From Nitrosopumilaceae archaeon (GTDB lineage: Archaea > Thermoproteota > Nitrososphaeria > Nitrososphaerales > Nitrosopumilaceae): DNA of 13,092 nt. The DNA lies in the NCBI GenBank assembly GCA_052389415.1, contig JBQTHX010000084.1, forward strand, positions 1 to 13,092. Reading direction: 5' to 3'. How positions within the stretch are numbered: the stretch's first letter is position 1; each line of letters begins with the position of its first letter. The translations under genes were made by a program, and so were the position numbers. Shown here piece after piece: positions 1 to 13,092 of this stretch. The notes beneath the pieces are model-generated. The model was not told the DNA's origin and did no database searches. It saw nothing but the letters and a program-made list of their open reading frames with translations.

Positions 1-2
1 CG

Positions 3-1328
3 AAAGAATTAGAAGTAATAATAAAACGTGTTGTACGTGAAAAAGCAAAACAAAATTTATTTTTGATAAATCAAAGTGATTTGAAGAATTTTGTAGATTC
101 TGAAATTGACCAAAATATGGAGGACAAATATGAAATCTTGTCCGATCCAACAAAAAAGATCACTTCAGCTGAAGGGATTGAAGGTTTTGGCACTTTGTTT
201 GCCAGTAGATACTCGAAACTTTTAAAGATAATATCTCAGAGGGGCCAAGCACAAAAACTGGTAAAAATTGATGTAGTAAAGACAGGCAAGCCAAAAGACG
301 AAGTCTTCGTTGGTGGACTACTTATGGATAGGAAGATAGAACGAGATGTTACAAAATTGATAATAGATGATCCTAGCGGTTCTATTGAAACCCTAGTTTT
401 TAACAAAGAAATCCAACCAATAGCAAATTCACTTTTGATAGACCAATTTGTTATGCAAAGCATTACTAGTGGAAAAAATGGTGGTTTTATAACAAAAGAG
501 ATTCTTATTCCGGACCTCCCTGATCATGTGACAAATCGTTCAAAGACAGAAACCTATGCTGTCTTGATATCTGACTTGCATGTAGGTAGCAAGTATTTTA
601 TGGAAAAAGAGTTTGGAGATTTTGTTTCTTGGCTTGCTAGTCCTGATCCAATTGCAAAGAAAATTCGTTTTGTCCTAGTTTGTGGAGATGTAGTGGATGG
701 GGTTGGAATCTTTCCAAATCAAGACAAGGAGCTTCTTTTGGTGGACATTGGAGATCAGATGGTAAAAGCTGCTCAGTTACTTGATAAGATTCCAAAGCAT
801 ATCAAGGTCTTTATCATTCCAGGAAACCATGATCCTGGTAGGCGAGCCCTTCCACAACCTGCTATACCTGAAAAACACAATATGGATTTATGGAATAGAG
901 AGAATTTTTTCATGCTTGGTAATCCATCGGTAGTTTCGTTAAATGGTGTAAAGGTCTTGATGTTTCATGGGCAGAGTTTGGATGATGTTGTTGGAACCAC
1001 ACCAGGTCTTAGTTATTCCCAACCAGCAAAAGCAATGCGTATGCTGTTAAAAGCCAGACATCTAAGTCCGATTTATGGTAAAAGAACACCCATTGCTCCT
1101 GAAACGGAAGACATGATGGTAATTGATGAGATCCCTGACATCTTTCACTCTGGGCATATCCATGTTGTTGACCTAGACAAGTACAAGGGTACGTTAATAG
1201 TAAATTCCGGTGCTTGGCAAACTCAGACTGCATACCAAGCTAGTGTTGGAATAACACCAACTCCAGGGATTGCAGTTATTGTAAATCTAACCAATCTTAA
1301 GGTCTTTACCAAAAGTTTCGTAGATTAG
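3..1328 (+). CDS. polB: DNA polymerase D small subunit DP1 (3'-5' proofreading exonuclease), 5' partial
   Basis: Mre11-like phosphoesterase motifs SDLH, GDVVDG, GNHD, FHG and SGHIH, preceded by an OB-fold-like segment. The frame is open from position 3 (KELEVIIKRVVREKAKQNLFL...), so the true start lies upstream of the window and TTG at 63 is not the start. Confidence 0.95.
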   Translation, partial: KELEVIIKRVVREKAKQNLFLINQSDLKNFVDSEIDQNMEDKYEILSDPTKKITSAEGIEGFGTLFASRYSKLLKIISQRGQAQKLVKIDVVKTGKPKDEVFVGGLLMDRKIERDVTKLIIDDPSGSIETLVFNKEIQPIANSLLIDQFVMQSITSGKNGGFITKEILIPDLPDHVTNRSKTETYAVLISDLHVGSKYFMEKEFGDFVSWLASPDPIAKKIRFVLVCGDVVDGVGIFPNQDKELLLVDIGDQMVKAAQLLDKIPKHIKVFIIPGNHDPGRRALPQPAIPEKHNMDLWNRENFFMLGNPSVVSLNGVKVLMFHGQSLDDVVGTTPGLSYSQPAKAMRMLLKARHLSPIYGKRTPIAPETEDMMVIDEIPDIFHSGHIHVVDLDKYKGTLIVNSGAWQTQTAYQASVGITPTPGIAVIVNLTNLKVFTKSFVD

Positions 1329-2537
1329 CTACAAAACATCTGAAAAGATAAGATCGTCTTTGAGTGTTTTTTTTATAACATCAGGATGAATTGTCAATTT
1401 GTATTTTTTTGTCCTGCCGTGCATGCCTTGGTGAACTATCTTACCAGTGATAAGACCTGAGAGTTCAATATCACCGAGAATTTGAGTGACTCTCCGTTGT
1501 GTTATCTCTTTTTGACGTATCTTCTTACACAATCCTTTGTAGGCCTGATATATCTCGCCTGTGGAGGATCCGTTTGCTCTCATTACTGCGATAATTAGTA
1601 ATTTTTCATGTAATGGGTAAGAGTTTAGTGCTGTTGTTTCCTTATCCTCTTCCATCTTTTGAGAAGCTCGTCTGATATGGTCTTCTTTGACAGTTTTTGA
1701 TTGCTCTCTTTCAGCAAGCTCTCCTGCAACACGCAAGAGATCTATTGCTCTTCTTGCATCACCATGTTCTTGACCAGCCATTGCTGCACAGAGATTTAGT
1801 GCGGCAGTATCGACCGCGCCTTTGATAAAGGCTGTTTTGATTCTATCTAAGAGAATTTCCTTGATCTGCTCTACTGTATAATTTGTAAAGACAATCTCCT
1901 CTTCGCTAAGACTGCTCAAAACTCGGGGATCAAGTCTTTCTTTGAAGGTCAGATCGTTTGAAATTCCAATAAGTGTAAGGGAGCCTGACTTTAACCGTTC
2001 ATTTGCTCTCGTGAGGTTGTACAAAACATCCTTACCCGTTTTTGATATTAGTTCTGCCAAGTAATCAATCTCATCTATTACAAAAACTGCATTTGTAGTG
2101 TTTTTTTGAATAACTTCTAACAATTTGTTAAATACACTGCTAATTGATAATCCGGTTGCAGGAAGTTCTTTTTGGTTAAGGCCTAATTCCCTCCCCAAAC
2201 TTACTAGTAATCCATACAATGTTGTTTCGTCTTTGGCGTTTGTATAAGCCAGTTTAATCGGAAAATCACTCTTTTCAACACGTTTGTGTATTTTTGATAA
2301 GACAGTTTTTACTACCAATGTTTTGCCCGTACCGGGTTTGCCGTAAATAAGAAGATTTGATGGTCGTGATTTTTTTAAGATAGGTAGTAAAGCCTGGGTA
2401 ACTTTGGCAAGTTCGTTGTCCCTGTGTAAAATTATCTCTGGGATGAAGGTAAAATGCAATACATCACGTTTTTTTAAAATAGAAAGTCCGCTTGCTGCGT
2501 CATCAAGCAATTTATCTACGGGATCATGGTTGGTCAT
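1329..2537 (-). CDS. cdc6: Orc1/Cdc6 replication initiator (AAA+ ATPase with C-terminal winged helix)
   Basis: Walker A GKPGTGKT, Walker B VIDEID, GDARRA motif and a C-terminal wHTH. ATG at 2537 (MTNHDPVD) is preferred over GTG at 2546 because it is preceded by an SD-like AGGTG. Confidence 0.96.
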   Translation of the reverse strand: MTNHDPVDKLLDDAASGLSILKKRDVLHFTFIPEIILHRDNELAKVTQALLPILKKSRPSNLLIYGKPGTGKTLVVKTVLSKIHKRVEKSDFPIKLAYTNAKDETTLYGLLVSLGRELGLNQKELPATGLSISSVFNKLLEVIQKNTTNAVFVIDEIDYLAELISKTGKDVLYNLTRANERLKSGSLTLIGISNDLTFKERLDPRVLSSLSEEEIVFTNYTVEQIKEILLDRIKTAFIKGAVDTAALNLCAAMAGQEHGDARRAIDLLRVAGELAEREQSKTVKEDHIRRASQKMEEDKETTALNSYPLHEKLLIIAVMRANGSSTGEIYQAYKGLCKKIRQKEITQRRVTQILGDIELSGLITGKIVHQGMHGRTKKYKLTIHPDVIKKTLKDDLIFSDVL

Positions 2538-2540
2538 GGT

Positions 2541-2562
2541 ACACACCTATATTTCCTCTGTC
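2541..2562 (-). promoter_or_regulatory. ORB-like box a, overlapping the cdc6 leader and SD
   Basis: Minus strand reads GACAGAGGAAATATAGGTGTGT, matching the ORB pattern CAG(A/T)GGAAA-N4-G-rich. It ends 3 nt before the cdc6 ATG. Confidence 0.65.
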
Positions 2563-2610
2563 ATCATAATGAATCTACTTAGAATAAACTAATTAGAATA
2601 GAATCACTAA

Positions 2611-2670
2611 ACCAAATTTAGTATATCATTAATTATTTTTATTTTTATTTCAAAAAAATTTTTTAATAAA
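2611..2670. other. Extreme AT-rich tract (candidate DNA unwinding element)
   Basis: Only 5 G/C in 60 bp, and a single C in 2628-2670. Includes an A7T6 run at 2652-2664 and lies between ORB-like boxes a and b. Confidence 0.6.
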
Positions 2671-2671
2671 G

Positions 2672-2697
2672 CTAGAGTGGAAAACATGGTGTGTGGG
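2672..2697 (+). promoter_or_regulatory. ORB-like box b
   Basis: CTAGAGTGGAAAACATGGTGTGTGGG. Shares GAGTGGAAA with boxes c and d, and GGAAA-N4-GGTGTGT with box a. It is inverted relative to a, c and d. Confidence 0.72.
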
Positions 2698-2763
2698 CTC
2701 GTTTAAACTTAGTTAACTATTTGTTAAGTTCTTGTTAAGGTAAGACCAAAAAAAGCCAGATTT

Positions 2764-2793
2764 GACCCCTATATTTCCACTCCAGACGTGAAT
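2764..2793 (-). repeat. ORB box c (30-bp direct repeat, copy 1)
   Basis: Plus strand GACCCCTATATTTCCACTCCAGACGTGAAT; minus strand ...CTGGAGTGGAAATATAGGGGTC, with ORB core and G-string. Confidence 0.88.
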
Positions 2794-2825
2794 ATCAACC
2801 TTAACATTGTTAAAATGGTAGGAGG

Positions 2826-2855
2826 GACCCCCATATTTCCACTCCAGACGTGAAT
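2826..2855 (-). repeat. ORB box d (30-bp direct repeat, copy 2)
   Basis: Plus strand GACCCCCATATTTCCACTCCAGACGTGAAT. 29/30 identical to box c and starts 62 bp after it. Confidence 0.88.
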
Positions 2856-3006
2856 TATCTGTAAAGGGGATTAAAAGATGGATAGTGTTTGTTAAGGTGG
2901 TAATAATTTCTAGGCATGAGCCAGGCAGTGAATGTTAACAAACTCACTAGTTAACAAATCTTCTTTGATCTGTTCAAGTGTTAATGTGTTAACCGGATCG
3001 ATCACA

Positions 3007-3408
3007 ATGGCCAAAAAAAGAATCAAGATAGACCTAGAAGACACAGACGGAGCCAAGTACAACTTTAGTGTAGAAGGAAACGTAACTAGGGAAAAGATGT
3101 TAAAAATATTTGAAGTAATGGATTTGATAAACATAGAAGAACCTCAAGAAGGACCAACCTTAGATTCAGTAGGGTCTAAGATTTGGAATATTGTAGACAA
3201 ACACTTTCCAATGGGTAAGTTCACCTCATCTGAGGTGCTTGAGAAATATGAGGATGATTATGGGGAACCTATCAAACTAAGCATAATCTCAACATATTTG
3301 TCCAGATTTGCCTCTAAAGGCAGAGTGGAAAGAACAAAACAGGGAAGAGAGTGGGCCTATCAGGTAGTAAAGATCTCTCAAAGACAACCCAACTCCCTAA
3401 CAAAATAA
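3007..3408 (+). CDS. Hypothetical protein with small N-terminal domain and C-terminal winged helix-turn-helix (133 aa)
   Basis: C-terminus FTSSEVLEKY...LSIISTYLSRFASKGRVERTKQGREWAY has the helix-helix-wing pattern of wHTH proteins. ATG 3007 (MAKKRIK) is preferred because the upstream extension from 2932 runs through the origin motif cluster. Confidence 0.8.
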   Translation: MAKKRIKIDLEDTDGAKYNFSVEGNVTREKMLKIFEVMDLINIEEPQEGPTLDSVGSKIWNIVDKHFPMGKFTSSEVLEKYEDDYGEPIKLSIISTYLSRFASKGRVERTKQGREWAYQVVKISQRQPNSLTK

Positions 3409-3570
3409 TCACATTATCACTACTTTCTTTATTATGAGATGGTCTTGGTTCATTATGATTTTGACATAATCTCCTTTTTGAAGTTCAAGAAACTTTCTAA
3501 ACTGCTTTGGGATTGAGATTGTACCACCAGAGGTAATCTTTACCAACTCTTCATTCTGCTGAACAGTCAT
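3409..3570 (-). CDS. AbrB/MazE/SpoVT-family DNA-binding protein (53 aa; not in the ORF track)
   Basis: Manual translation gives MTVQQNEELVKITSGGTISIPKQFRKFLELQKGDYVKIIMNQDHLIIKKVVIM*, matching the family pattern K(I/V)xxxGxIxIPKxxRxxLxLxxGDxV. ATG at 3570, TGA at 3409-3411, and an AT-rich TATA-like segment about 25-30 nt upstream. Confidence 0.9.
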   Translation of the reverse strand: MTVQQNEELVKITSGGTISIPKQFRKFLELQKGDYVKIIMNQDHLIIKKVVIM

Positions 3571-3671
3571 ATTATTAAATAATTAGTTTATGTATTAAAT
3601 GTTTTATTATTTTATAAAATTCATAAATATACCATAAATTGATGAAATAGTGGATTTATTGGTATTGATTA

Positions 3672-4223
3672 TTATTGTGGAACTGGTTTTTCCAAACCAA
3701 GTTTGGCCTTACCCTTATCAGTAATGTTATAAGTAAATGGTTTGGTCCCCATATCTCTTTCAACTAAACCTTCCTCGAAAAGCTTCTTCATCATCCGTGA
3801 CGTATGCTCTCTGGTCCTACCTATTGTGATTTGTATATCACGTGATGTCATAGGTTTTTCTGTGATAAGCTTCAGAACATAATCTGTAGCACTACCAAAA
3901 TTCATGTTACGCATACGTTCTTTAGGTGGCTCTTCCTGAACCTGGCTCTCCTCTAACTGGACCTTAGTTGGTTTTTTATCATATTTTATTGGAACCTCCA
4001 ACATGCCTGTATCTTGGTCTAACTCTAGAGAATCCATTCGTATTTTCATATCAATTAACTGATTCTCATAATAATGGAGGCGGTCAGTATAGGATTTTAT
4101 TTGTTGAGATTCAGTCTTAATGAGTGGTTTGATCTTGTTGTATATCACTATGGCGAACAAACCACCAAGAAACGCGAGAGTGATTCCAATTAACACTTCT
4201 GGATCTGGAATCTCTACTAACAT
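3672..4223 (-). CDS. Membrane-anchored winged-helix protein (N-terminal TM helix, coiled-coil/linker, C-terminal MarR/ArsR-like wHTH; 183 aa)
   Basis: Hydrophobic VLIGITLAFLGGLFAIVIY followed by basic NKIK, then a heptad-like YTDRLHYYENQLIDMKIRMDSLEL and a Q/E/P-rich linker. The C-terminal VLKLITEKPMTSRDIQITIGRTREHTSRMMKKLFEEGLVER...FTYNITDKG is wHTH-like. ATG 4223 preferred over 4256. Confidence 0.82.
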   Translation of the reverse strand: MLVEIPDPEVLIGITLAFLGGLFAIVIYNKIKPLIKTESQQIKSYTDRLHYYENQLIDMKIRMDSLELDQDTGMLEVPIKYDKKPTKVQLEESQVQEEPPKERMRNMNFGSATDYVLKLITEKPMTSRDIQITIGRTREHTSRMMKKLFEEGLVERDMGTKPFTYNITDKGKAKLGLEKPVPQ

Positions 4224-4468
4224 CACAAAAACTCTGCAAAGTTCGTGATTTATCATGATCGAGCAACTTTATTTCACATAATACACATCAATCACAACAC
4301 ATTAAATATCATCGAGTTTGGTGACTATCAATTTAGATTGCTGTAATATCACAATCTACAGGCACGTTTTACCAATGTATCAATCACAGACATGATTTCA
4401 TTTTCTTTTTCAGGGAAGACATCACTGTTTTGTATCACAGATACTTGGTCCGAAAGCCTGCTTATCAC
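3826..4468. repeat. Dispersed ATCAC(A)/(T)GTGAT motif cluster
   Basis: 14 exact copies at 3826, 3837, 3842, 3862, 4144, 4180, 4222, 4245, 4291, 4348, 4383, 4421, 4434 and 4464. Both orientations occur, and the palindrome ATCACGTGAT sits at 3837-3846. Confidence 0.65.
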
Positions 4469-4711
4469 ATCAAGATCATCAGGGATGACTACTCCCAATC
4501 CCCTGAGGAGGATGATTGAATAAAACAATCCCAGAAGTTTATCCCTAGATTGAATAACCTGCCTGTAATAGGCCCCTTTTGTTATAGCAAAATCAATTTT
4601 CTGGAGGTTCAACTGATTTAAAATAATTTCAATTTGTCTTTCTGTAAATAATGATTTTTTTATAATTTGCTTGATAATATTATTAAAAATTGGATTTAGA
4701 GATTCGGCCAT
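4349..4711 (-). CDS. Hypothetical protein with HTH-like segment (120 aa)
   Basis: FTERQIEII...ITKGAYYRQVIQSRDKL resembles LuxR/sigma-region-4/Tfx-like HTH patterns (LTxRQxEIL...SxxAxxxxxxxAxxKL). The domain call is by eye only. Confidence 0.7.
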   Translation of the reverse strand: MAESLNPIFNNIIKQIIKKSLFTERQIEIILNQLNLQKIDFAITKGAYYRQVIQSRDKLLGLFYSIILLRGLGVVIPDDLDVISRLSDQVSVIQNSDVFPEKENEIMSVIDTLVKRACRL

Positions 4712-4744
4712 AGCTATACAATTCTGTATATCTTATCAGTGTTA

Positions 4745-4758
4745 AACTTTAAAAAGTT
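4745..4758 (+). promoter_or_regulatory. Candidate TATA box of the GGGPS-DP2 unit within a short inverted repeat
   Basis: AACTTT-AA-AAAGTT contains TTTAAAA about 21-28 nt upstream of ATG 4776, consistent with a leaderless archaeal promoter. It lies in a 64-bp divergent intergenic region. Confidence 0.45.
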
Positions 4759-4775
4759 CACTATTAACCTGTTTT

Positions 4776-5522
4776 ATGAAAAATGTGGAGAGTTATCTGA
4801 GGACGACTCTCAAGAAAAAGAAAGCTTTATTGTTTGTTCTCATAGATTCGGAAATATCTGAAATAAAATCAACTGTAAAGCTTGCAAAAGAAGTTGAGAA
4901 GATTGGCGCAGCAGCAATCCTAGTTGGAGGGTCATCTGCCACTGATCAGCTTGGCATGTCTGAGGTTGTTAGAAATTTAAAAAAATCAATCAAGATTCCA
5001 ATAATACTATTCCCTGGTAATATCACAGGTGTTGTCCCAAACGCTGACGCCATCTTATTTAGCTCTCTTTTGAATTCAGAGAATCCATATTACATCTCTC
5101 AGGCTCAAGCACTTGGAGCTCCAAACGTTCTAAAATTCGGGTTGGAACCTCTCCCTACTGCCTACATTGTGATAGGTGAAGGAACCTCGGCTTGGTTTGT
5201 AGGCTCAGTGAGAAGCATACCTTTTGACAAATCAAACCTTGCCGCAATGTACGCCCTTTCAGCACAATTCCTTGGCATGAGGTTTGTATACCTTGAGGCA
5301 GGCTCTGGCGCTTCTTCTCACGTTAAACCAGAGATGATACGGGCTGTACGTAAGGTATTCAAAGGCTTTTTGATCGTCGGCGGTGGAATCCGAGGCTCTC
5401 ATGCGGCAGGCGAGATTGTAAAGGCAGGTGCTGATGCCATCGTGATAGGTACCCTTGCAGAAAGAGGCGGAAGTAAAGTCTTAAACGAAATTATCAAAAC
5501 CATACAGAGTGTAAAGAAGTAA
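4776..5522 (+). CDS. Geranylgeranylglyceryl phosphate synthase (PcrB/GGGPS family; archaeal ether lipid synthesis)
   Basis: Family motifs VLID, ILVGGS, IILFPG, ADAILFSSLLNS, YLEAGSGA, VGGGIR and GADAIVIGT; size fits a TIM barrel (248 aa). Confidence 0.93.
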   Translation: MKNVESYLRTTLKKKKALLFVLIDSEISEIKSTVKLAKEVEKIGAAAILVGGSSATDQLGMSEVVRNLKKSIKIPIILFPGNITGVVPNADAILFSSLLNSENPYYISQAQALGAPNVLKFGLEPLPTAYIVIGEGTSAWFVGSVRSIPFDKSNLAAMYALSAQFLGMRFVYLEAGSGASSHVKPEMIRAVRKVFKGFLIVGGGIRGSHAAGEIVKAGADAIVIGTLAERGGSKVLNEIIKTIQSVKK

Positions 5523-5523
5523 C

Positions 5524-8500
5524 ATGTCTGAGAATGTGGTGTTGCGTTTAAGTGATATTGCAATGCCCAAATATTATGTAGATTATTATACAAACATCTC
5601 AAATACCGTCTTTTTAATATTTGAAAAGTCGGCAGCAGCAAAATCTACCTTACATGACTCATCAGTAATGGTAGAACCAAAGATTGCATTTGATCTTGCA
5701 GACCGAGTCTCAAAAATGCATGAGATAGACGTGACTGAGCGACTTAGAACACTGATACAAACTACTACAAAAGAGCTAGCAGCTTTAACACTAGCTGAGG
5801 AAATTGCCCGAGGCAAATACATTGGTTCAGATTCATTAGAAGAGAAATTAGACATGGCAGTAAGGGTCGCCCTTGCTATCGTTACTGAAGGTGTTACCAT
5901 AGCTCCGTTGCAAGGAATCCATGAGGTAAAAATCAAGAAGAATAGGGATGGTTCGGAATACCTCTCAATCTCCTTTGCTGGACCAATAAGGTCAGCTGGA
6001 GGAACAGAAGCTGCATCTACAATGCTAATTGCAGATCATGTTAGAAAGATAGCTGGTTTACAAAAATTTCAGGCAAACTCGTTTGATGATGAGACTGGAA
6101 GGTTTGTCGAAGAATTGAGACTTTACGAGAGAGAAGCTGGCAACTTTCAATACCACGTTCCAGATGAGGACATTGTTTCTGTAATATCAAATCTCCCGGT
6201 AGAACTAGATGGCGTTGACACTGATCCTATAGAAATTGTTAGTCATAGGAACATGGCCAGAATTTCTACTGATAGGGTAAGAGGAGGAGCCTTAAGAGTA
6301 CTAAATGATGGTTTGATTGGCAAATCCAGAAAATTGCTAAAACTAATTGATTTGTATAATTTAGAGGGCTGGGGCTGGCTAAAAGACCTCAAAGGAGCAA
6401 TCCAGACTGGTGATGAGGATGCGGCAGCACATAGGATGAGAGAGGTTATAACTGGAAGATCTGTACTTTCGATGCCAAAAAAACTAGGGGGGTTTAGACT
6501 AAGATATGGTCGAGCTTGCAACACTGGTTTTTCATCGGTAGGAGTTCATCCTGTTGTAGCTGAAATTCTAGATCATACTATAGCTGTAGGCACACAAATC
6601 AAACTAGATACTCCTGGCAAGGCTTCAACCATTGCTTTTGTAGATTCGCTTGACACTCCAATTATCAGATTGGTAAATGGAAATGTTGTTAAGCTACAAA
6701 ACACGGCCCATGGAATCAGCCTAAAAGGACAGATTGAAAAAATACTCCACCTTGGTGATATCCTGATCAGCTATGGAGATTTTTTGGAAAATAACGCGGA
6801 ACTAATTCCGACTGGATATGTGGAAGAATATTGGGTAGCGGAATTGGAAGAAAAACTCAGGAGATACGAATCAGAAGATAATCAATTACAGAGTTTTCTT
6901 TCAAAAACTCCTACATTTGATGAGGCAATCAAACTCTCATTAGATTTTGATATTCCACTTCATCCTAACTATCTTTACTTTTGGGAACAGCTATCACACG
7001 ACGAATTTAAGAAAATACTAGACCCCCAAAGTGCAGATCCTGAATCAATAACCTACCAAAAAAGTAGTAAACCCATTCTAGAAAAGCTTGGGGTTCCTCA
7101 TGAAGTTTCTGGGGAATTCGTTTTACTAAAATCTACAGAAGCTAGGATTTTCTTTAATCTGTTATTTAGAAACCCAATCAATTTTGATGATCTCCTTACT
7201 GTGACACAAATGATCACACAAGCAACCAAAATAAGAATTCATGAAAAATTTTCTACAGCAATTGGAGTCAGGGTTGGAAGACCAGAAAAAGCAGCTGAAA
7301 GGAAAATGAAACCACCAGTGCACACATTATTTCCTGTGGGAAATAAGGGAGGAGCATCACGTGACTTGATCAAAGCTTCCAAACAAGCCGACTTTTATTG
7401 TAATATTAGTAATAGGATATGTAAAAACTGTAAAGAACCCTCTATTGGAATAGCTTGCCAGAAATGCGGTTCCAAGACATCCATAATATTCATCTGTCCA
7501 AATTGCAGAGCAGAGCTTGATTCTGATTTTTGTGCTAAATGCAAGAGAAAAGGGAGTTTGCATGGCTACAAAGCATTTCCTCTCAAGGAGCAGCTTCTTC
7601 TATCTCAAGAAACTACTGCAATACGAGTTCAAGAGCCGTTTAAAGGAGTACGTGAACTCATTAACCAAGAAAGAATTGCAGAACCTCTTGAAAAGGGAAT
7701 CATTAGGCAAAGTCTTGGTCTTAGCGTATTCAAGGATGGTACAATTAGATTTGACGCAACAAATGCACCACTAACTCACTTTAAACCAAGATGGATTGGG
7801 ACCTCCCTTGAAAAACTTGCCAAGTTTGGATACACTCATGATATTGATGGTAAGCCACTCATTTCCTTGGATCAGACAATTGAGCTCTTAATGCAAGATG
7901 TAATCATTCCACATGATTGCGGAGAATATCTGGTCAAGACATCACAATATATTGATAAAGAATTGGAAAAGCTCTACGGTCACCCTGCCTTTTACAAAAT
8001 CAAAAACAACGATGATCTAGTTGGACACCTGATAATTGGTTTAGCTCCCCATACATCAGTTGGAATAGTAGGGCGAATAATAGGGTATACCAACACGCAT
8101 GTTTGTTATGGTACTCCGGTTTGGCATTCTGCAAAAAGACGTGATGCTGACGGTGATGCTGACTCTATCATGCTTTTGATGGATAGTCTTCTCAACTTTT
8201 CAAGACAGTTTCTTTCTGACAGAATAGGAGGATTAATGGATGCACCGCTATTGGTACAGCCCATAGTCATTCCACAAGAAGTTCAAAGACAGGCTCATAA
8301 TTTTGAAGTAGTAAAAGAATTACCACTCTCATTTTTTGAAGCCACCCTTGCAAAAGAAAAAGCAAGTGAGGTAAAAGGAGTTGAAACTCTAAAATCAAGA
8401 CTAGAAACCGAAAAACAGTTTTACGGACATTATTTCACACATAACACGTCAACTCTTACTACATCCAAATCGAGAAGCGCATATTCTACATTAGGTTCAC

Positions 8501-8895
8501 TTTTGGAAAAACTCGACATGCAAATTAGGACGGCTAATATCATAGATGCTATCGATCCAAATGAAGTAGTATCTATGGTAATGACAACTCATCTCTTGCC
8601 AGATATCATGGGTAATCTTAGAGCATATTCTGGACAATCATTTAGGTGTACTACATGTGGTGCAAGCTACAGAAGAATTCCATTATCACAAATTTGTAAT
8701 GAGTGTGGCAGCAAACTCATACAAACCATGACAAGACCTTCTGTGAAAAAATATCTAAAACTTGCAAAAAGGCTGCTTGGCAAATATCAAGTCGATCCAT
8801 ATTTGAGAGGACGAGTCCTTGGTTTGTTAGATGAACTTGAACTAGTTTTTGGAAAAGAGGAAAGCGACCAAGCTCTTCTTACTGATTATGCTTAA
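5524..8895 (+). CDS. polC: DNA polymerase D large subunit DP2
   Basis: Motifs TEGVTIAPLQGI, AGPIRSAGGT, GGFRLRYGR, RVGRPEKA, FKDGTIRFD, catalytic KRRDADGDAD and GGLMDAPL, multiple CxxC zinc sites, and a C-terminal PIP-like QALLTDY. No intein evident. Confidence 0.97.
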   Translation: MSENVVLRLSDIAMPKYYVDYYTNISNTVFLIFEKSAAAKSTLHDSSVMVEPKIAFDLADRVSKMHEIDVTERLRTLIQTTTKELAALTLAEEIARGKYIGSDSLEEKLDMAVRVALAIVTEGVTIAPLQGIHEVKIKKNRDGSEYLSISFAGPIRSAGGTEAASTMLIADHVRKIAGLQKFQANSFDDETGRFVEELRLYEREAGNFQYHVPDEDIVSVISNLPVELDGVDTDPIEIVSHRNMARISTDRVRGGALRVLNDGLIGKSRKLLKLIDLYNLEGWGWLKDLKGAIQTGDEDAAAHRMREVITGRSVLSMPKKLGGFRLRYGRACNTGFSSVGVHPVVAEILDHTIAVGTQIKLDTPGKASTIAFVDSLDTPIIRLVNGNVVKLQNTAHGISLKGQIEKILHLGDILISYGDFLENNAELIPTGYVEEYWVAELEEKLRRYESEDNQLQSFLSKTPTFDEAIKLSLDFDIPLHPNYLYFWEQLSHDEFKKILDPQSADPESITYQKSSKPILEKLGVPHEVSGEFVLLKSTEARIFFNLLFRNPINFDDLLTVTQMITQATKIRIHEKFSTAIGVRVGRPEKAAERKMKPPVHTLFPVGNKGGASRDLIKASKQADFYCNISNRICKNCKEPSIGIACQKCGSKTSIIFICPNCRAELDSDFCAKCKRKGSLHGYKAFPLKEQLLLSQETTAIRVQEPFKGVRELINQERIAEPLEKGIIRQSLGLSVFKDGTIRFDATNAPLTHFKPRWIGTSLEKLAKFGYTHDIDGKPLISLDQTIELLMQDVIIPHDCGEYLVKTSQYIDKELEKLYGHPAFYKIKNNDDLVGHLIIGLAPHTSVGIVGRIIGYTNTHVCYGTPVWHSAKRRDADGDADSIMLLMDSLLNFSRQFLSDRIGGLMDAPLLVQPIVIPQEVQRQAHNFEVVKELPLSFFEATLAKEKASEVKGVETLKSRLETEKQFYGHYFTHNTSTLTTSKSRSAYSTLGSLLEKLDMQIRTANIIDAIDPNEVVSMVMTTHLLPDIMGNLRAYSGQSFRCTTCGASYRRIPLSQICNECGSKLIQTMTRPSVKKYLKLAKRLLGKYQVDPYLRGRVLGLLDELELVFGKEESDQALLTDYA

Positions 8896-10214
8896 CGTAG
8901 TTTGATGTATTCGTAAGCTCCAGTCTTATTTTCAAAACAATAATGAACCTTTTGATAGTCTTTTCTAAATAACTTGACTTCGGATACAACCTTCTTTCTA
9001 TCTTTTTTATCTATTACCACCTTTTTGATAAATTCTGCAACCTGTTTCATCTCTGATTCTTTCATGCCAAGTCTAGTAAGCTCTGCAACTCCCAGTCTTA
9101 TGCCTCCTGGATGGAAGTAGTTCCTACCTGCCTTTATGTCTCCGGGAATAAGTTGTCTATTTACAATAATATTAGCCTTCTCAAGATCTGCCTCAATTAC
9201 ACCCCCATCTCCAAATGAAAGTACATTTAGCACAATTTGATGAGATTTGGTAAATCCTCTTTTTTCTCCTAAAACTCCAAAACCAAATGAATTTAGTGCT
9301 TGTGCTAATGCCTTTGCATTCTTTACTACTTGGCTTGCATACTTTTTGCCAAACTCGATCATTTCTGCAAATGCAATTGCCTTTCCTGCGACATGATGAA
9401 GATGATGATTGCTTGTCATACCTGGGAATGTAGCTTTTTTGATCTCATCAGCATACTTTTCAAAAGAGACGACCATTCCTCCCTGTGGGCCAAACAGAGT
9501 CTTATGAGTACTCATCGTCATTGCATCTGCTCCTTCTCTTAATGGATCCTGAAATTGGCCACCCGCAATTAATCCAGCAACATGCGCACCATCATAATTG
9601 ATAAACATCTTGTATCCCTTGAGAAAATCAGCAAGTTCTTTAACTGGATGGGGAAACAAAAACACCGAGCCACCAAACATAGCTAGCTTTGGTAACCTGC
9701 CAGCTTTTTCAAGCTCTACAACTTTTTGTTTTGTCTTATCCACATCAAGTGACATCTCTTCTGCATCAAACGGGTAAAATTCAATATCTAATCCATGCAC
9801 AAGGCCAGCAGTACCAGAGTGTTCCTTCTTGCCATGAGAAATATGGCCTCCAGATGGAATAGATGGAGCAAGCATGACATCTCCAGGATTTGTAAATGCG
9901 GAATAAATTGAAAGATTTGCTACAACTCCAGAAATTGGCCTTACATCTACAAACTGTGCCTTAAACAACTTCTTTGCAAGGTCTATACACTTGAATTCTA
10001 CCTTGTCGATAAACGTACAGCCGGCATAAACACGCTCACCTGGCCACCCTTCTGCATATCTATTTGCAAAATCCGAAATGGTCGCTTCCCTCACTGCCGG
10101 GCTAGGAATATTCTCACTTGCAATGAGAGGAATCGAATTTTCAAACCAATTATTGTGTTCCTTTAACATGGACAGAATCTCCTTGTAGGACTTTTTTGGT
10201 GAAGATCGCGCCAT
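8892..10214 (-). CDS. glyA: Serine hydroxymethyltransferase
   Basis: Motifs LIASEN, RYAEGWPGERVYAG, GGHISHG, YDGAHVAGLIAGG, the PLP-lysine motif STHKTLFGPQGG and GIRLG. Confidence 0.96.
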   Translation of the reverse strand: MARSSPKKSYKEILSMLKEHNNWFENSIPLIASENIPSPAVREATISDFANRYAEGWPGERVYAGCTFIDKVEFKCIDLAKKLFKAQFVDVRPISGVVANLSIYSAFTNPGDVMLAPSIPSGGHISHGKKEHSGTAGLVHGLDIEFYPFDAEEMSLDVDKTKQKVVELEKAGRLPKLAMFGGSVFLFPHPVKELADFLKGYKMFINYDGAHVAGLIAGGQFQDPLREGADAMTMSTHKTLFGPQGGMVVSFEKYADEIKKATFPGMTSNHHLHHVAGKAIAFAEMIEFGKKYASQVVKNAKALAQALNSFGFGVLGEKRGFTKSHQIVLNVLSFGDGGVIEADLEKANIIVNRQLIPGDIKAGRNYFHPGGIRLGVAELTRLGMKESEMKQVAEFIKKVVIDKKDRKKVVSEVKLFRKDYQKVHYCFENKTGAYEYIKLR

Positions 10215-10295
10215 GCCCAGTGGGTTAAATTATCCTAATTTAAAAACATCGAAACGAATTTTAGAAATTACACTAGTCACAAACAGATCTTAAGA

Positions 10296-10302
10296 TATAA
10301 AA
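10296..10302 (+). promoter_or_regulatory. Candidate TATA box for the thermosome gene
   Basis: TATAAAA 26-32 nt upstream of ATG 10328, in the divergent glyA/thermosome intergenic region. Confidence 0.5.
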
Positions 10303-10327
10303 AGGGAAAAAATCGCTCTAGTAAAAC

Positions 10328-12019
10328 ATGTCCATTCAAAGCACACAAGGTGGAATTCCTGTTGTCATCCTAAAAGAAGGAGCTCAACAGACCAAAGGTC
10401 GGGACGCTCAAAAAAACAACATTACAGCGGCAAAACTAATTGCTGAAATCATACACACCAGTCTTGGTCCAAGGGGTATGGACAAGATGCTTGTAGATTC
10501 GATAGGTGATGTTACGATTACTAATGACGGAGCTACCATTCTAAAAGAGATTGATGTTCAACATCCTGCTGCAAAAATGCTCGTGGAAATTTCTAAAACT
10601 ACAGATAATGAAGTAGGAGATGGAACCACATCAGCCGTAGTCCTTGCAGGAGCACTATTAGAAAATGCAGAATCTCTGATAAATCAGGATGTTCATCCCA
10701 CAATAATTGTCGATGGATATAGAAAAGCTGCACAAAAAGCAATTCAATTATTAGAAAAAATGGCAGACAGAGTACAACCCACTGATAAAGAAATTCTAAA
10801 CAAAATTGCCAAAACCTCGATGCAGACAAAGCTTGTAAGAAAAGATTCTAACTACCTGTCTGACATGATAGTTAAAGCTGTACTTGCAGTAGCAGAAAAA
10901 TCGGAAGATGATTACAAAGTTGATATTGACGATATTAAAGTGGAGAAAAAGGCTGGCGGTTCGATAAAAGATACTCTTCTCACAAAAGGGATTATTCTAG
11001 ATAAAGAAGTTGTTCATGCAGGAATGCCAAAAAAGATTTCCAATGCAAAAATTGCTTTAATCAACACTGCCTTAGAGATTGACAAGACGGAATTTGATGC
11101 GAAGATAAACATCTCAAGTCCTGATCAAATGAAATCATTCCTAGACGAAGAGAACAAAATGATCAAGACAATGGTTGACAAAGTTATCGCATCAGGAACA
11201 AATGTGTTGTTCTGTCAAAAAGGAATTGATGACATTGCGCAACACTATCTTGCAAAAGCAGGGGTGTTAACAGTTAGGCGAATAAAAGAAAGTGATCTTA
11301 CAAAGCTTGCAAAAGCGACCGATGCTAGAATTGTAACTAACCTTGATGATCTATCTGAAGATGATTTGGGCTCTGCAGAAAATGTTGAGGAAAGAAAAGT
11401 AGAGACAGACAAATGGGTTTTTGTAGAGGGCTGCAAGCGTCCAAAATCAGTGACTATTCTTGTACGTGGTGGCTCACAGAGAGTGGTTGACGAAGTTGAA
11501 AGATCTATTCACGACGCACTCATGGTTGTTAAAGATGTTATGGAAAAACCATTGATTGTAGCTGGAGGAGGCGCTCCAGAAACCTATGCAGCAACAAAGC
11601 TAAGAGAATGGGCAAAATCACTTGAGGGCAGAGAACAGCTAGCTGTTGAAAAATTTGCTGATTCACTTGAGGTGATTCCAATTACATTAGCAGAAAACGC
11701 TGGAATGGATCCAATTGATACTTTGACATCATTACGATCAAAACAGTTGAAGGGAAACAAGTGGACTGGTATCGATGTGATGAAAGGAGTAGTGGCAAGT
11801 ATGCATTCAACTGATATCTTTGAACCACTTTCTGTAAAGCTTCAGATAATATCTTCTGCTACTGAAGCAACATCCATGATTCTAAGAATTGATGATGTAA
11901 TCGCAGTTGCAAAATCAAGTGGTCCACCACCGGGTGCAGAAGGAATGGGAGGCATGGGCGGTATGGGTGGTATGCCTGGCATGGGTGGTATGGGCGGAAT
12001 GCCACCTATGGATATGTAA
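10328..12019 (+). CDS. ths: Thermosome subunit (group II chaperonin)
   Basis: Motifs [36 protein letters not shown] and ILRIDD, with a GGM-repeat C-terminal tail. Alpha versus beta is not resolved. Confidence 0.97.
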
Positions 12020-12076
12020 AAAGAAATTTTCAAATTTACCTACAAGATTTATTTGCGAATCATTCATACAAAATTC

Positions 12077-12361
12077 ATGCAAAAAAGCGGTATTATTCTT
12101 ACTGGAATAAAATTTGCATATCTTATAGTCTTCTTTGCACTACTCTCAGGAGTTTTTTATCTTATAATTGAACAACAAGCAGAAGCTTTTTCTGAGGTTG
12201 TGTATGGTGTGCTGATTCTTTTTGTTGGACTGGGGGGAGCCTTGTGTTTGTATAAAGCAAGTACCTCAGAGAAGAGACGAAAAATCTACATGATTGCAGG
12301 ATTTGCAATTCTTACTGTTGCACTCTTTCTAGTTTTCTCTATATCTGGAAGATTGATCTAG
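12077..12361 (+). CDS. Small hypothetical membrane protein (about 3 TM helices, 94 aa)
   Basis: Three hydrophobic stretches: FAYLIVFFALLSGVFYLII, VVYGVLILFVGLGGALCLY and IYMIAGFAILTVALFLVFSI. ATG 12077 is preferred over TTG 12053. Confidence 0.75.
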   Translation: MQKSGIILTGIKFAYLIVFFALLSGVFYLIIEQQAEAFSEVVYGVLILFVGLGGALCLYKASTSEKRRKIYMIAGFAILTVALFLVFSISGRLI

Positions 12362-13092
12362 ATATCAAAATATAGATAGAATTCGTGTGGGTGAGGTCGT
12401 ATTGAAACCTCTCTTTCATCTTTTCTTTCTAATTCAATTATCTTGTCAATTACCTCGTTTGTAAATATTGGATTTAGGAACTTTCGATCATTCTCAAGAG
12501 AATCTAGTGCTTCACCTAAAGTAGCAGGTAACGATTTGATCCCTTTCTTCTCTCTCTCTTCCTTACTCATCTTGTAAATGTCATCAAGCACTGGATCACC
12601 AGGTTCAATCTTTTTCTTTATTCCATCCAACCCTGCAGCAAGTACTGCAGCGAAAACGAGATAAGGATTAGATGAAGGGTCTGGTGCCCTAAACTCCAAT
12701 CGTTTTATCTTTGCATATCTTTCTCCTCTGAAATGAGCTGGAACTCTTACTATTGCTGATCTATTACTTGGACTCCAAGCGATGTAGACAGGAGCTTCAT
12801 AACCTGGAACAAGTCTGTGATATGAATTTGTAGTTGGTGCAACAATAGCAGCTAGTGCTCTTGCATGATTCATTATTCCACCGCAGAAATACCTTGCAGT
12901 TTGGCTTATTTCCTCTTTGTCGTCTTTATCAAAAAAGACATTCTTATCATCTTTCCAAAGGCTAACATTGGTATGCATTCCGGATCCTGAATCCATAGAA
13001 ATTGGTTTTGGCATCATAGTCGCTACCTTGCCAAACTTTTGGGCAACATTTCTTACAACATACTTGTATGTTTGTGCACCATCAGCAGCATT
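12358..13092 (-). CDS. glnA: Glutamine synthetase type I, C-terminal part (5' partial)
   Basis: Motifs ATMMPKP, SGSGMH, RLVPGYEAP, NRSAIVRVP and RLEFRAPDPSSNPYL. The frame stays open to the window edge (NAADGAQTYKYVVRNVAQKFGKVAT...). Confidence 0.96.
   Translation of the reverse strand, partial: NAADGAQTYKYVVRNVAQKFGKVATMMPKPISMDSGSGMHTNVSLWKDDKNVFFDKDDKEEISQTARYFCGGIMNHARALAAIVAPTTNSYHRLVPGYEAPVYIAWSPSNRSAIVRVPAHFRGERYAKIKRLEFRAPDPSSNPYLVFAAVLAAGLDGIKKKIEPGDPVLDDIYKMSKEEREKKGIKSLPATLGEALDSLENDRKFLNPIFTNEVIDKIIELERKDEREVSIRPHPHEFYLYFDI

Follow-up and report, generated by a model that had tools for sequence, protein, structure and literature searches.

What does a membrane-anchored winged-helix protein do beside the replication origin of an archaeon? 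Archaeal chromosome positioning and segregation are largely unexplained, and no archaeal protein connecting DNA with the membrane is known to us. The question is raised by a stretch of 13,092 nucleotides from a Nitrosopumilaceae archaeon, one of the ammonia oxidisers (GenBank assembly GCA_052389415.1, contig JBQTHX010000084.1, positions 1 to 13,092), hereafter the window. It is an archaeal replication island, comprising the DNA polymerase D (PolD) subunits, the Orc1/Cdc6 initiator, the origin (oriC), small winged helix-turn-helix (wHTH) genes and the gene of GGGP synthase (GGGPS). One of the wHTH genes, on the reverse strand, encodes the subject of this work: a protein of 183 residues with a predicted membrane helix at its N-terminus and a wHTH domain at its C-terminus, here called the anchored protein. 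An initial annotation of the window had taken it for a tether between chromosome and membrane, rather than for a transcription factor.

We find that this small, single-copy protein is present in every sampled Nitrosopumilaceae genome, with a predicted topology, a candidate recognition motif and a fixed place at the side of the origin. We favour, with a probability of roughly 40%, the reading that it is a membrane-integral, oligomeric and self-regulating DNA binder, which would occupy GTGAY boxes and pin origin-proximal DNA to the membrane. Two more conserved parts of the origin module are flagged by the same comparison: a small wHTH gene, orf158, and an origin-specific array of TGTTAA or TGTGAA repeats. 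If the attachment reading is true in its fullest form, the locus would hold an archaeal version of the attachment site of the replicon model; should the protein prove to be no more than a transcription factor that regulates itself, the gain is modest, a new architecture of membrane-bound regulator. A search of full-text literature found no paper on this archaeal family.

A winged helix behind a membrane helix

The gene and the parts of its product are as follows (reverse strand throughout).

3672-4223: gene of the anchored winged-helix protein, 183 amino acids, stop codon included
4197-4223: N-terminal tail MLVEIPDPE, 9 residues, net charge -3, predicted outside
4137-4196: residues 10-29, uncharged hydrophobic helix of 20 residues, predicted signal anchor
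4020-4091: residues 45-68, conserved amphipathic helix of three heptads, probable oligomerisation element
3891-4019: residues 69-111, variable spacer rich in E, P, A and S
3696-3890: residues 112-176, winged helix-turn-helix domain
3795-3812: residues 138-143 (REHTSR), R-E-H-x-x-R core of the recognition helix
4248-4253: conserved TATA-like box ATAAAT, from an alignment of 30 related loci

The longest frame of the gene spans 3672-4256 and would give 194 amino acids. We place the start at the ATG at 4223, which was also the choice of the initial annotation, on three grounds. Residue 12 of the longer frame, encoded by this ATG, aligns with residue 1 of most full-length homologues; many relatives have stop codons in the extension upstream of it; and the ATAAAT box lies 30 nt upstream of this ATG, while it abuts the one at 4256. 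Such a distance from box to start codon suggests that the mRNA has a short leader or none.

Behind the hydrophobic helix comes a basic juxtamembrane stretch, followed by an amphipathic helix whose hydrophobic columns (residues 45, 49, 52, 56, 59, 63 and 66) follow a clean 4-3 pattern over three heptads. This helix probably pairs or bundles the chains; the coiled coil that had been proposed for it is partly borne out by the pattern, its length being limited to three heptads in this lineage. The spacer is poorly conserved: among 44 homologues it is 13% identical to that of the window protein and varies from 29 to 64 amino acids. The last module matches the Pfam family HTH_27 (PF13463) above the cut-off (24.6 against 22.2 bits, E-value 3.1e-5, residues 126-182 of the 194-residue frame), and the window protein has no NCBIfam match above the cut-offs. 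A profile search of solved structures returned nothing significant, the best hit being CooA at an E-value of 0.083; with the domain alone, the best chains were ADAR1 Z-alpha, HxlR and MarR-like ones, at 0.3 or worse. The order of modules first read from the window, that is a membrane helix at the N-terminus, a coiled-coil-like helix, a linker and a C-terminal wHTH, thus holds.

The N-terminus is predicted to face outwards in all orthologues with a clear start

Of 70 Nitrososphaeria loci, 69 yielded an orthologue; the remaining one was cut off short of the gene. Each of the 69 has a hydrophobic N-terminal segment by its 19-residue Kyte-Doolittle maximum; that of one locus, L034, scored lower in a cruder re-scoring. 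A segment kept in every orthologue of these loci is not there by chance.

For 60 orthologues the start is unambiguous, and in these we counted the charges on both sides of the helix. The N-terminal tail is 7 amino acids long at the median (range 0-19) and, summed over all 60, contains 1 K/R against 109 D/E. The 15 residues past the helix sum to 226 K/R against 115 D/E, and the K/R count is higher after the helix than before it in 60 of 60. The uncharged stretch has a median length of 22 residues, and of 20 in the window protein. Under the positive-inside rule, this bias points to a signal anchor of N-out/C-in orientation with a cytoplasmic winged helix, and predicts a bitopic protein from which no signal peptide is cleaved. 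An outside segment of 9 amino acids, close to the median of these orthologues, leaves no space for an extracytoplasmic sensor domain, as had been proposed.

A different fate of the N-terminus would undo any link to the chromosome: were it a cleaved secretion signal, or inserted in the inverted sense, the winged helix would end up outside the cell. Cleaved Sec signal peptides have a basic n-region, a short hydrophobic core and a cleavage site. What the anchored protein shares with them is a hydrophobic segment near the N-terminus, and nothing else speaks for this explanation. Acidic residues dominate ahead of the helix, the uncharged stretch exceeds the length of a signal-peptide core, and the enrichment in K/R follows directly after the helix in every orthologue counted; moreover, an extracellular DNA-binding fold with a conserved recognition helix is implausible. 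We consider secretion or inverted insertion to be barely credible.

The gene keeps its place beside the origin

The predicted origin lies in a non-coding stretch near the gene, with the following neighbours.

63-1328, forward strand: DNA polymerase D small subunit
1329-2546, reverse strand: Orc1/Cdc6 initiator gene, flanking oriC (Pfam)
between Orc1/Cdc6 and orf158: non-coding stretch of 460 bp
2672-2683: inverted partner of the repeats below, resembling an origin recognition box (ORB)
2764-2793 and 2826-2855: ORB-like direct 30-mers, predicted oriC
2712-2993: TGTTAA/GTTAAC array, intermingled with the ORB repeats and extending to the orf158 promoter
3007-3408, forward strand: orf158, 133 amino acids from the ATG at 3007, small N-terminal domain and winged helix
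3409-3570, reverse strand: AbrB-type gene
4349-4711, reverse strand: orf120, upstream neighbour of the anchored-protein gene
4776-5522, forward strand: GGGP synthase
5524-8895, forward strand: polymerase D large subunit

An A+T-rich run precedes the ORB-like repeats, and the 460-bp stretch resembles an archaeal origin. The primary mapping of an origin in Nitrosopumilus maritimus is reportedly that of Pelve et al. 2013, a work cited in a review and in the Nitrosocaldus genome paper. From the last ORB-like repeat to the 3' end of the anchored-protein gene there are 817 bp, and about 1.4 kb to its start, in agreement with the distance of about 1 kb first given. We can thus confirm the observation from which this work departs, a membrane-anchored winged-helix protein encoded near oriC. 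The review describes the origin of N. maritimus as single and mapped.

The gene occurs once in the genome of the window, which is 94% complete. A word-indexed search found 3345 homologues, and an exhaustive search of representatives at 50% identity found 652 at E-values up to 0.001. Of 201 genomes sampled across the phylum, a profile of 44 homologues detected the family in 116. All 114 sampled Nitrosopumilaceae genomes have it, and so do 178 of 201 of the class, one family of which yielded none (0/8). Here as below, related genomes are not independent, and the tallies overstate their statistical weight. Outside Nitrososphaeria, 20 loci were compared: 12 of their orthologues have the membrane helix and 8 do not. 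Bathyarchaeia forms, of 237 amino acids, combine a membrane helix with about 130 residues of coiled coil and are annotated as 'MarR family'; Methanomethylicia forms, of about 200 amino acids, have an N-terminal coiled coil without a membrane helix.

The order cdc6 - origin - orf158 - AbrB - anchored gene - orf120 - GGGPS - PolD large subunit is found in all 30 close loci, with cdc6 falling past the 1.5-kb flank in 7 of them. One of these loci, L013, belongs to an unpublished genome (G132); its data enter the tallies, and none of the conclusions hinges on it. Taking 3.5 kb as the limit for orf158 and GGGPS and 5 kb for cdc6, we find orf158 close to the gene in 29, GGGPS in 31 and cdc6 in 31 of the 39 wider Nitrososphaeria loci, and in 17, 4 and 12, respectively, of the 20 loci of other classes. 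The most constant partner of the family is hence orf158 (30/30, 29/39 and 17/20 within 3.5 kb), followed by the origin, while the link to GGGPS (60/69 in Nitrososphaeria as a whole) is lineage-specific. The place near the origin, first read from the window, is conserved well past one family. In the classes other than Nitrososphaeria, cdc6 is near 10 of the 12 anchored forms and 2 of the 8 anchor-less ones, or 9/11 against 2/6 when counted by family. An association of the anchored forms with origin proximity is suggested by these few independent lineages.

A CRP-like recognition helix and GTGAY boxes in the gene's own promoter

The recognition helix is nearly invariant. The motif [ST]REH followed by x-x-R is found in 69 of 69 Nitrososphaeria orthologues; of the 20 from other classes, 19 have R-E-H and one has K-E-H; overall, 88 of 89 keep R-E-H-x-x-R. 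According to PMC11253593, the CRP segment R180ETVGR185 reads T1G2T3G4A5 by contacts of Arg180, Glu181 and Arg185. The spacing of R-E-x-x-x-R is equal in the CRP F-helix and in the anchored protein. Weak Pfam matches to HTH_Crp_2 and Crp, as well as the profile alignment to CooA, put the two motifs in the same register, all of them below significance. We treat the CRP parallel as a lead to the possible target, not as a family assignment.

The sequence upstream of the gene holds a cluster of boxes of the corresponding type.

4222-4468: GTGAY/RTCAC cluster, candidate operator, reaching the 3' end of orf120
4222, 4245, 4291, 4321, 4348, 4383, 4421, 4434 and 4464: GTGAY/RTCAC boxes
4273: TGTGAA

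Across lineages, the upstream boxes often read TGTGAT or ATCACA, or form palindromes such as TGTGAT-N2-ATCACA. We counted them at 69 loci in a stretch of 163 nt that ends with the start codon. At least four GTGAY boxes stand upstream of the family's gene at 53 loci. Where the rest of the locus would predict about 0.5 boxes, the median count is 5, and 65 loci have at least twice the expectation. As few as 1 of 281 control regions (upstream of cdc6, orf158, orf120, GGGPS and the PolD small subunit) reach four. In the genome of the window, the region upstream of the anchored gene is the second densest GTGAY cluster, the sole denser one being inside an open reading frame (ORF) of 475 amino acids. 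As the boxes follow one gene across the phylum, whatever its upstream neighbour, the simplest explanation is that they are its own operator, and they would point first to autoregulation. The CRP-like motif and the GTGAY boxes are two independent leads, and they fit each other.

Searching the genome for a regulon gave 1 perfect palindrome TGTGAY-N0-6-RTCACA, where we estimate about 2 by chance, so that no regulon can be claimed. This sole TGTGAT-N-ATCACA stands on contig C66 at 6676-6688 (2177-2189 of locus L180), just before a TTTTATAA box and an ORF of 312 amino acids, which we take from its first residues to be deoxyhypusine synthase.

Another dense non-coding GTGAY cluster of the genome is on contig C55 at 25364-25452 (about 1120-1160 of locus L182). 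It consists of the tandem palindromes CTAGTGATATCACTAG and GTGATGATATCAC, directly before a PadR-like gene of 174 amino acids, and is probably the operator of that regulator itself.

A repeat array that belongs to the origin

The initial annotation had pictured the anchored protein tethering DNA with an array of motifs. The array at oriC is real. TTGTTAA occurs 10 times in the window, with 6 copies within 2721-2957, and GTTAAC 5 times, with 4 copies within 2712-2993. On both strands together, 10 copies of TGTTAA stand in 2722-2992, where the genome averages 0.79 per kb; no other 300-bp stretch of the 1.43-Mb assembly has more than 4, which makes the origin array the densest. Of 19 spacers between cdc6 and orf158, TGTTAA is the top enriched hexamer in 10 and among the enriched ones in 17. 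Two Nitrososphaeria lineages and other classes have TGTGAA arrays in place of TGTTAA, separate from the ORB elements. A literature search on origin recognition boxes in these phyla found nothing on such arrays.

Presence and absence of the array were compared with those of its possible readers. At least five TGTKAA in the 700 nt upstream of cdc6 are found at 58 of 64 loci with the anchored protein. The array is missing from all 3 loci of one family (f10) that has kept orf158 and lacks the anchored family, and from both loci with anchor-less forms next to cdc6. It is also missing from one genome, G201, which has an anchored form beside cdc6 and no detected orf158. In four Nitrososphaeraceae genomes, orf158 is on another contig and the array remains at oriC; the 400 nt upstream of the relocated orf158 have only 0-3 boxes, and the anchored gene is beside cdc6 in 3 of 3 origin loci examined in such genomes. 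The array is hence a feature of the origin, and it is seen only in genomes that have both the anchored protein and orf158.

These contrasts come down to three families and one genome, and so few leave both proteins eligible as the reader of the array. Its assignment to the anchored protein is rejected here as unproven: presence and absence across lineages implicate orf158 equally, and the genome without orf158 has no array. The recognition helices offer no covariation to separate the two, those of the anchored protein and of orf158 being unchanged in lineages with either TGTTAA or TGTGAA. Within one genome, the origin boxes (TGTGAA/TGTTAA) and the promoter boxes (TGTGAT/TGTGAC) differ consistently in their last base. 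The difference hints at two readers.

Comparison with known DNA-membrane systems

The closest parallel in design is RicO of Staphylococcus aureus, which according to a preprint (bioRxiv 10.64898/2026.03.06.710092) combines a sequence-specific DNA-binding domain with a coiled coil and an amphipathic membrane helix to anchor the origin. There, RicO mutants lose origin positioning, the binding sites lie near oriC and spread over about 700 kb, and RocS of S. pneumoniae and RacA-DivIVA of B. subtilis are named as related tethers. The combination of an anchor, a spacer and a DNA-binding head, on which the tether reading was first based, therefore has counterparts in bacteria with experimental support. 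All three modules of the RicO/RocS type are predicted in the single chain of the anchored protein, its coiled coil having three heptads; candidate sites near the origin and a proposed membrane hold on it are further likenesses to RicO as described in that text. The two proteins differ in that the archaeal one has the reverse order of modules and a true membrane-spanning helix, and in that its candidate sites lie less than 2 kb from oriC. RicO has an experimentally shown function, while the anchored protein is known from its sequence.

Other proteins resemble the anchored protein in part. Noc of B. subtilis, a ParB-like protein, recruits DNA to the membrane by an N-terminal amphipathic helix, and its sites avoid the terminus and are not known to be concentrated at the origin. 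Both proteins would join DNA and membrane in one polypeptide; however, the helix of Noc is peripheral, unlike the membrane-spanning one found here, and no ParB-type family is among the Pfam or NCBIfam matches of the window protein. The regulators ToxR, CadC and TcpP consist of an N-terminal OmpR-type winged helix, a membrane helix and a periplasmic sensor domain. They share with the anchored protein a single membrane pass and a cytoplasmic winged helix. In contrast, the anchored protein starts with its helix, exposes 9 residues and ends with the winged helix; the window protein has no Pfam match to the OmpR-type family (Trans_reg_C). We reject membership of the ToxR/CadC type on account of the reversed order and of an outside segment too small for a sensor.

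With CRP/FNR, the anchored protein has in common the R-E-x-x-x-R pattern of the recognition helix, and TGTGA-type boxes would be its likely target; the box spacing upstream of its gene is not that of TGTGA-N6-TCACA. It has no domain resembling the cyclic-nucleotide-binding one by Pfam, and a membrane helix, a heptad helix and a spacer instead; it is thus no member of that family, and the resemblance may be convergent. A winged-helix core is likewise common to it and to MarR. The Pfam family MarR (PF01047) scores 19.6 bits with the window protein, against a cut-off of 24.6, and 31.6 with the Bathyarchaeia orthologue of locus L166. In a MarR dimer, helices flank the winged helix on both sides. 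The winged helix of the anchored protein ends at residue 176 of 183, which leaves no room for the C-terminal ones. The missing dimerisation helices speak against counting the window protein, with its sub-threshold score, as a MarR; oligomerisation would then come from the separate heptad helix. We know of no MarR protein with an N-terminal membrane helix.

A model of membrane attachment near the origin

Comparison of the loci carries the architecture, the topology signals, the conservation, the synteny and the joint conservation of boxes and gene. Inferred from these are the DNA specificity, the autoregulation and the tethering of the following model, along with any part that the protein may have in segregation or the control of replication. 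The protein would be bitopic, its 9 N-terminal residues outside and the remainder in the cytoplasm, where the heptad helix would pair or bundle the chains just behind the membrane. On a flexible spacer of about 45 residues, the winged-helix head would bind the GTGAY boxes, of the TGTGAT type, at 4222-4468 of its own promoter. Spacer and 15-residue juxtamembrane stretch together might give it a reach of perhaps 15-20 nm by our estimate. Occupancy of the boxes would regulate the gene and, with a membrane-integral protein, would hold that same DNA at the membrane. The boxes being about 1.4-1.6 kb from the ORB repeats, the result would be an origin-proximal point of attachment: for a protein that cannot leave the membrane, encoded about 1.5 kb from the origin repeats, to occupy its operator would be to fix the DNA next to the origin.

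Of the tether as first proposed, this model keeps what architecture, topology, origin proximity and the bacterial counterparts speak for. It leaves aside the link to the array and the exclusion of a transcription factor, which is not established in view of the boxes in the gene's own promoter and of the orthologues without an anchor. A fuller version would make the anchored protein the first archaeal chromosome-to-membrane attachment protein, of a family extending across Thermoproteota, whose membrane-spanning forms bind TGTGA-type boxes and possibly, jointly with orf158, the TGTKAA arrays near oriC, and hold the single origin at the membrane, thereby coupling initiation or segregation to the envelope. 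So much at once is doubtful, and we put it forward as speculation.

Several observations weigh against the attachment model. The similarity to CRP is weak, with every CRP-type Pfam match below its cut-off and no CRP chain in the sequence search of solved structures. One family (f9, 7 loci) retains a single GTGAY box, and the loci L054, L163, L165 and L171, among them the one with K-E-H, have 0 or 1. The boxes could be bound by another factor, for example orf120 or orf158, and they are not unique to the anchored protein, as GTGATATCAC palindromes stand upstream of the unrelated PadR-like regulator gene. With 8 of 20 orthologues outside Nitrososphaeria free of the helix, the anchor is not essential to the core function of the family. 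The association of anchor and origin comes from few independent lineages, as the counts by family indicate, and the place in the replication island could be an inherited gene order without function.

In the main rival explanation, the protein would be only a transcription factor held in the membrane, its closeness to oriC having no structural meaning. Such a self-regulating repressor or activator, controlled by release, a partner protein or the state of the lipids, would regulate itself and perhaps its neighbours orf120, GGGPS, orf158 and cdc6. Membrane-bound regulators are known, namely ToxR and CadC in bacteria and ArnR in Sulfolobus. The homologues are annotated as transcriptional regulator, MarR family or winged-helix protein, boxes in the own promoter are typical of autoregulation, and orthologues without an anchor exist. 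GGGPS, which catalyses the first committed step of archaeal lipid synthesis, lies close by in most Nitrososphaeria loci; this link is weak in the other classes (4/20, against 17/20 for orf158 and 12/20 for cdc6), and we judge a regulator of GGGPS to be the less likely form of this explanation. Against it also stand the missing sensor domain, with almost nothing of the chain outside, the lack of a regulon beyond the level of chance, and a recognition helix that is nearly unchanged across the phylum, unusual for an ordinary regulator. Furthermore, a membrane-integral regulator sitting on its own promoter would still put that DNA at the membrane. We regard a membrane-held transcription factor without structural role as a serious contender, if on balance an unlikely one.

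The winged helix could alternatively act mainly as a module that binds protein or cooperates with it, the anchored protein being a membrane receptor for orf158 or Cdc6: orf158 would read the TGTKAA array of oriC, forming the complex that the anchored protein captures. The constancy of orf158 as a neighbour fits this arrangement, and so does the distribution of the array, frequent with anchored forms, absent from the f10 loci, from the loci with anchor-less forms and from the genome with an anchored form and no orf158. Those contrasts, however, amount to three families and one genome, and the array stays at oriC in the four genomes where orf158 has moved away. A basic winged helix with the R-E-x-x-x-R motif agrees with binding of DNA, and the GTGAY boxes would be left without an explanation; a receptor of this kind appears improbable. 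We retain the self-regulating DNA binder as our working model.

Neighbouring genes of the island

The remaining genes of the island show conserved features of their own. The protein of orf158 consists of a small, conserved N-terminal domain followed by a winged helix with an invariant S-T-Y-L-x-R helix; this winged helix is Penicillinase_R-like in 7 of 23 members scanned. In one family, orf158 is co-directional with cdc6 and upstream of it. The product of orf120, conserved at 120 amino acids, has an HTH-like pattern (invariant S, T and Q, then G-A-Y-Y-R-Q) and belongs to no Pfam family; its gene is immediately upstream of the anchored gene in 56 of 69 Nitrososphaeria loci. An Rfam scan of the window gave no match.

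A perfect inverted repeat, TATACA-N4-TGTATA, stands at 4715-4730 between the divergent orf120 and GGGPS, and is followed by a AAACTTTAAA box. Its arms are largely kept across 29 aligned Nitrososphaeria loci, and it looks like a candidate operator overlapping the orf120 promoter.

Between orf158 and the anchored-protein gene, the window has the AbrB/SpoVT-type (MazE-like) gene of 53 amino acids (3409-3570, reverse strand). It is found in all 30 close loci and, among 40 more distant Nitrososphaeria loci, in L046 and L048 only. The same interval is occupied in two Bathyarchaeia loci (L159, 8439-10977, and L166, 6416-7966) by a HerA-like ATPase (DUF87, about 517 amino acids), accompanied in L159 by a protein of 339 amino acids of no known family. 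In locus L010, a fragment at 2092-2370 resembles residues 99-190 of the PolD large subunit (86% identity); standing between the anchored and the AbrB genes, it may be a duplicated piece of that subunit's gene.

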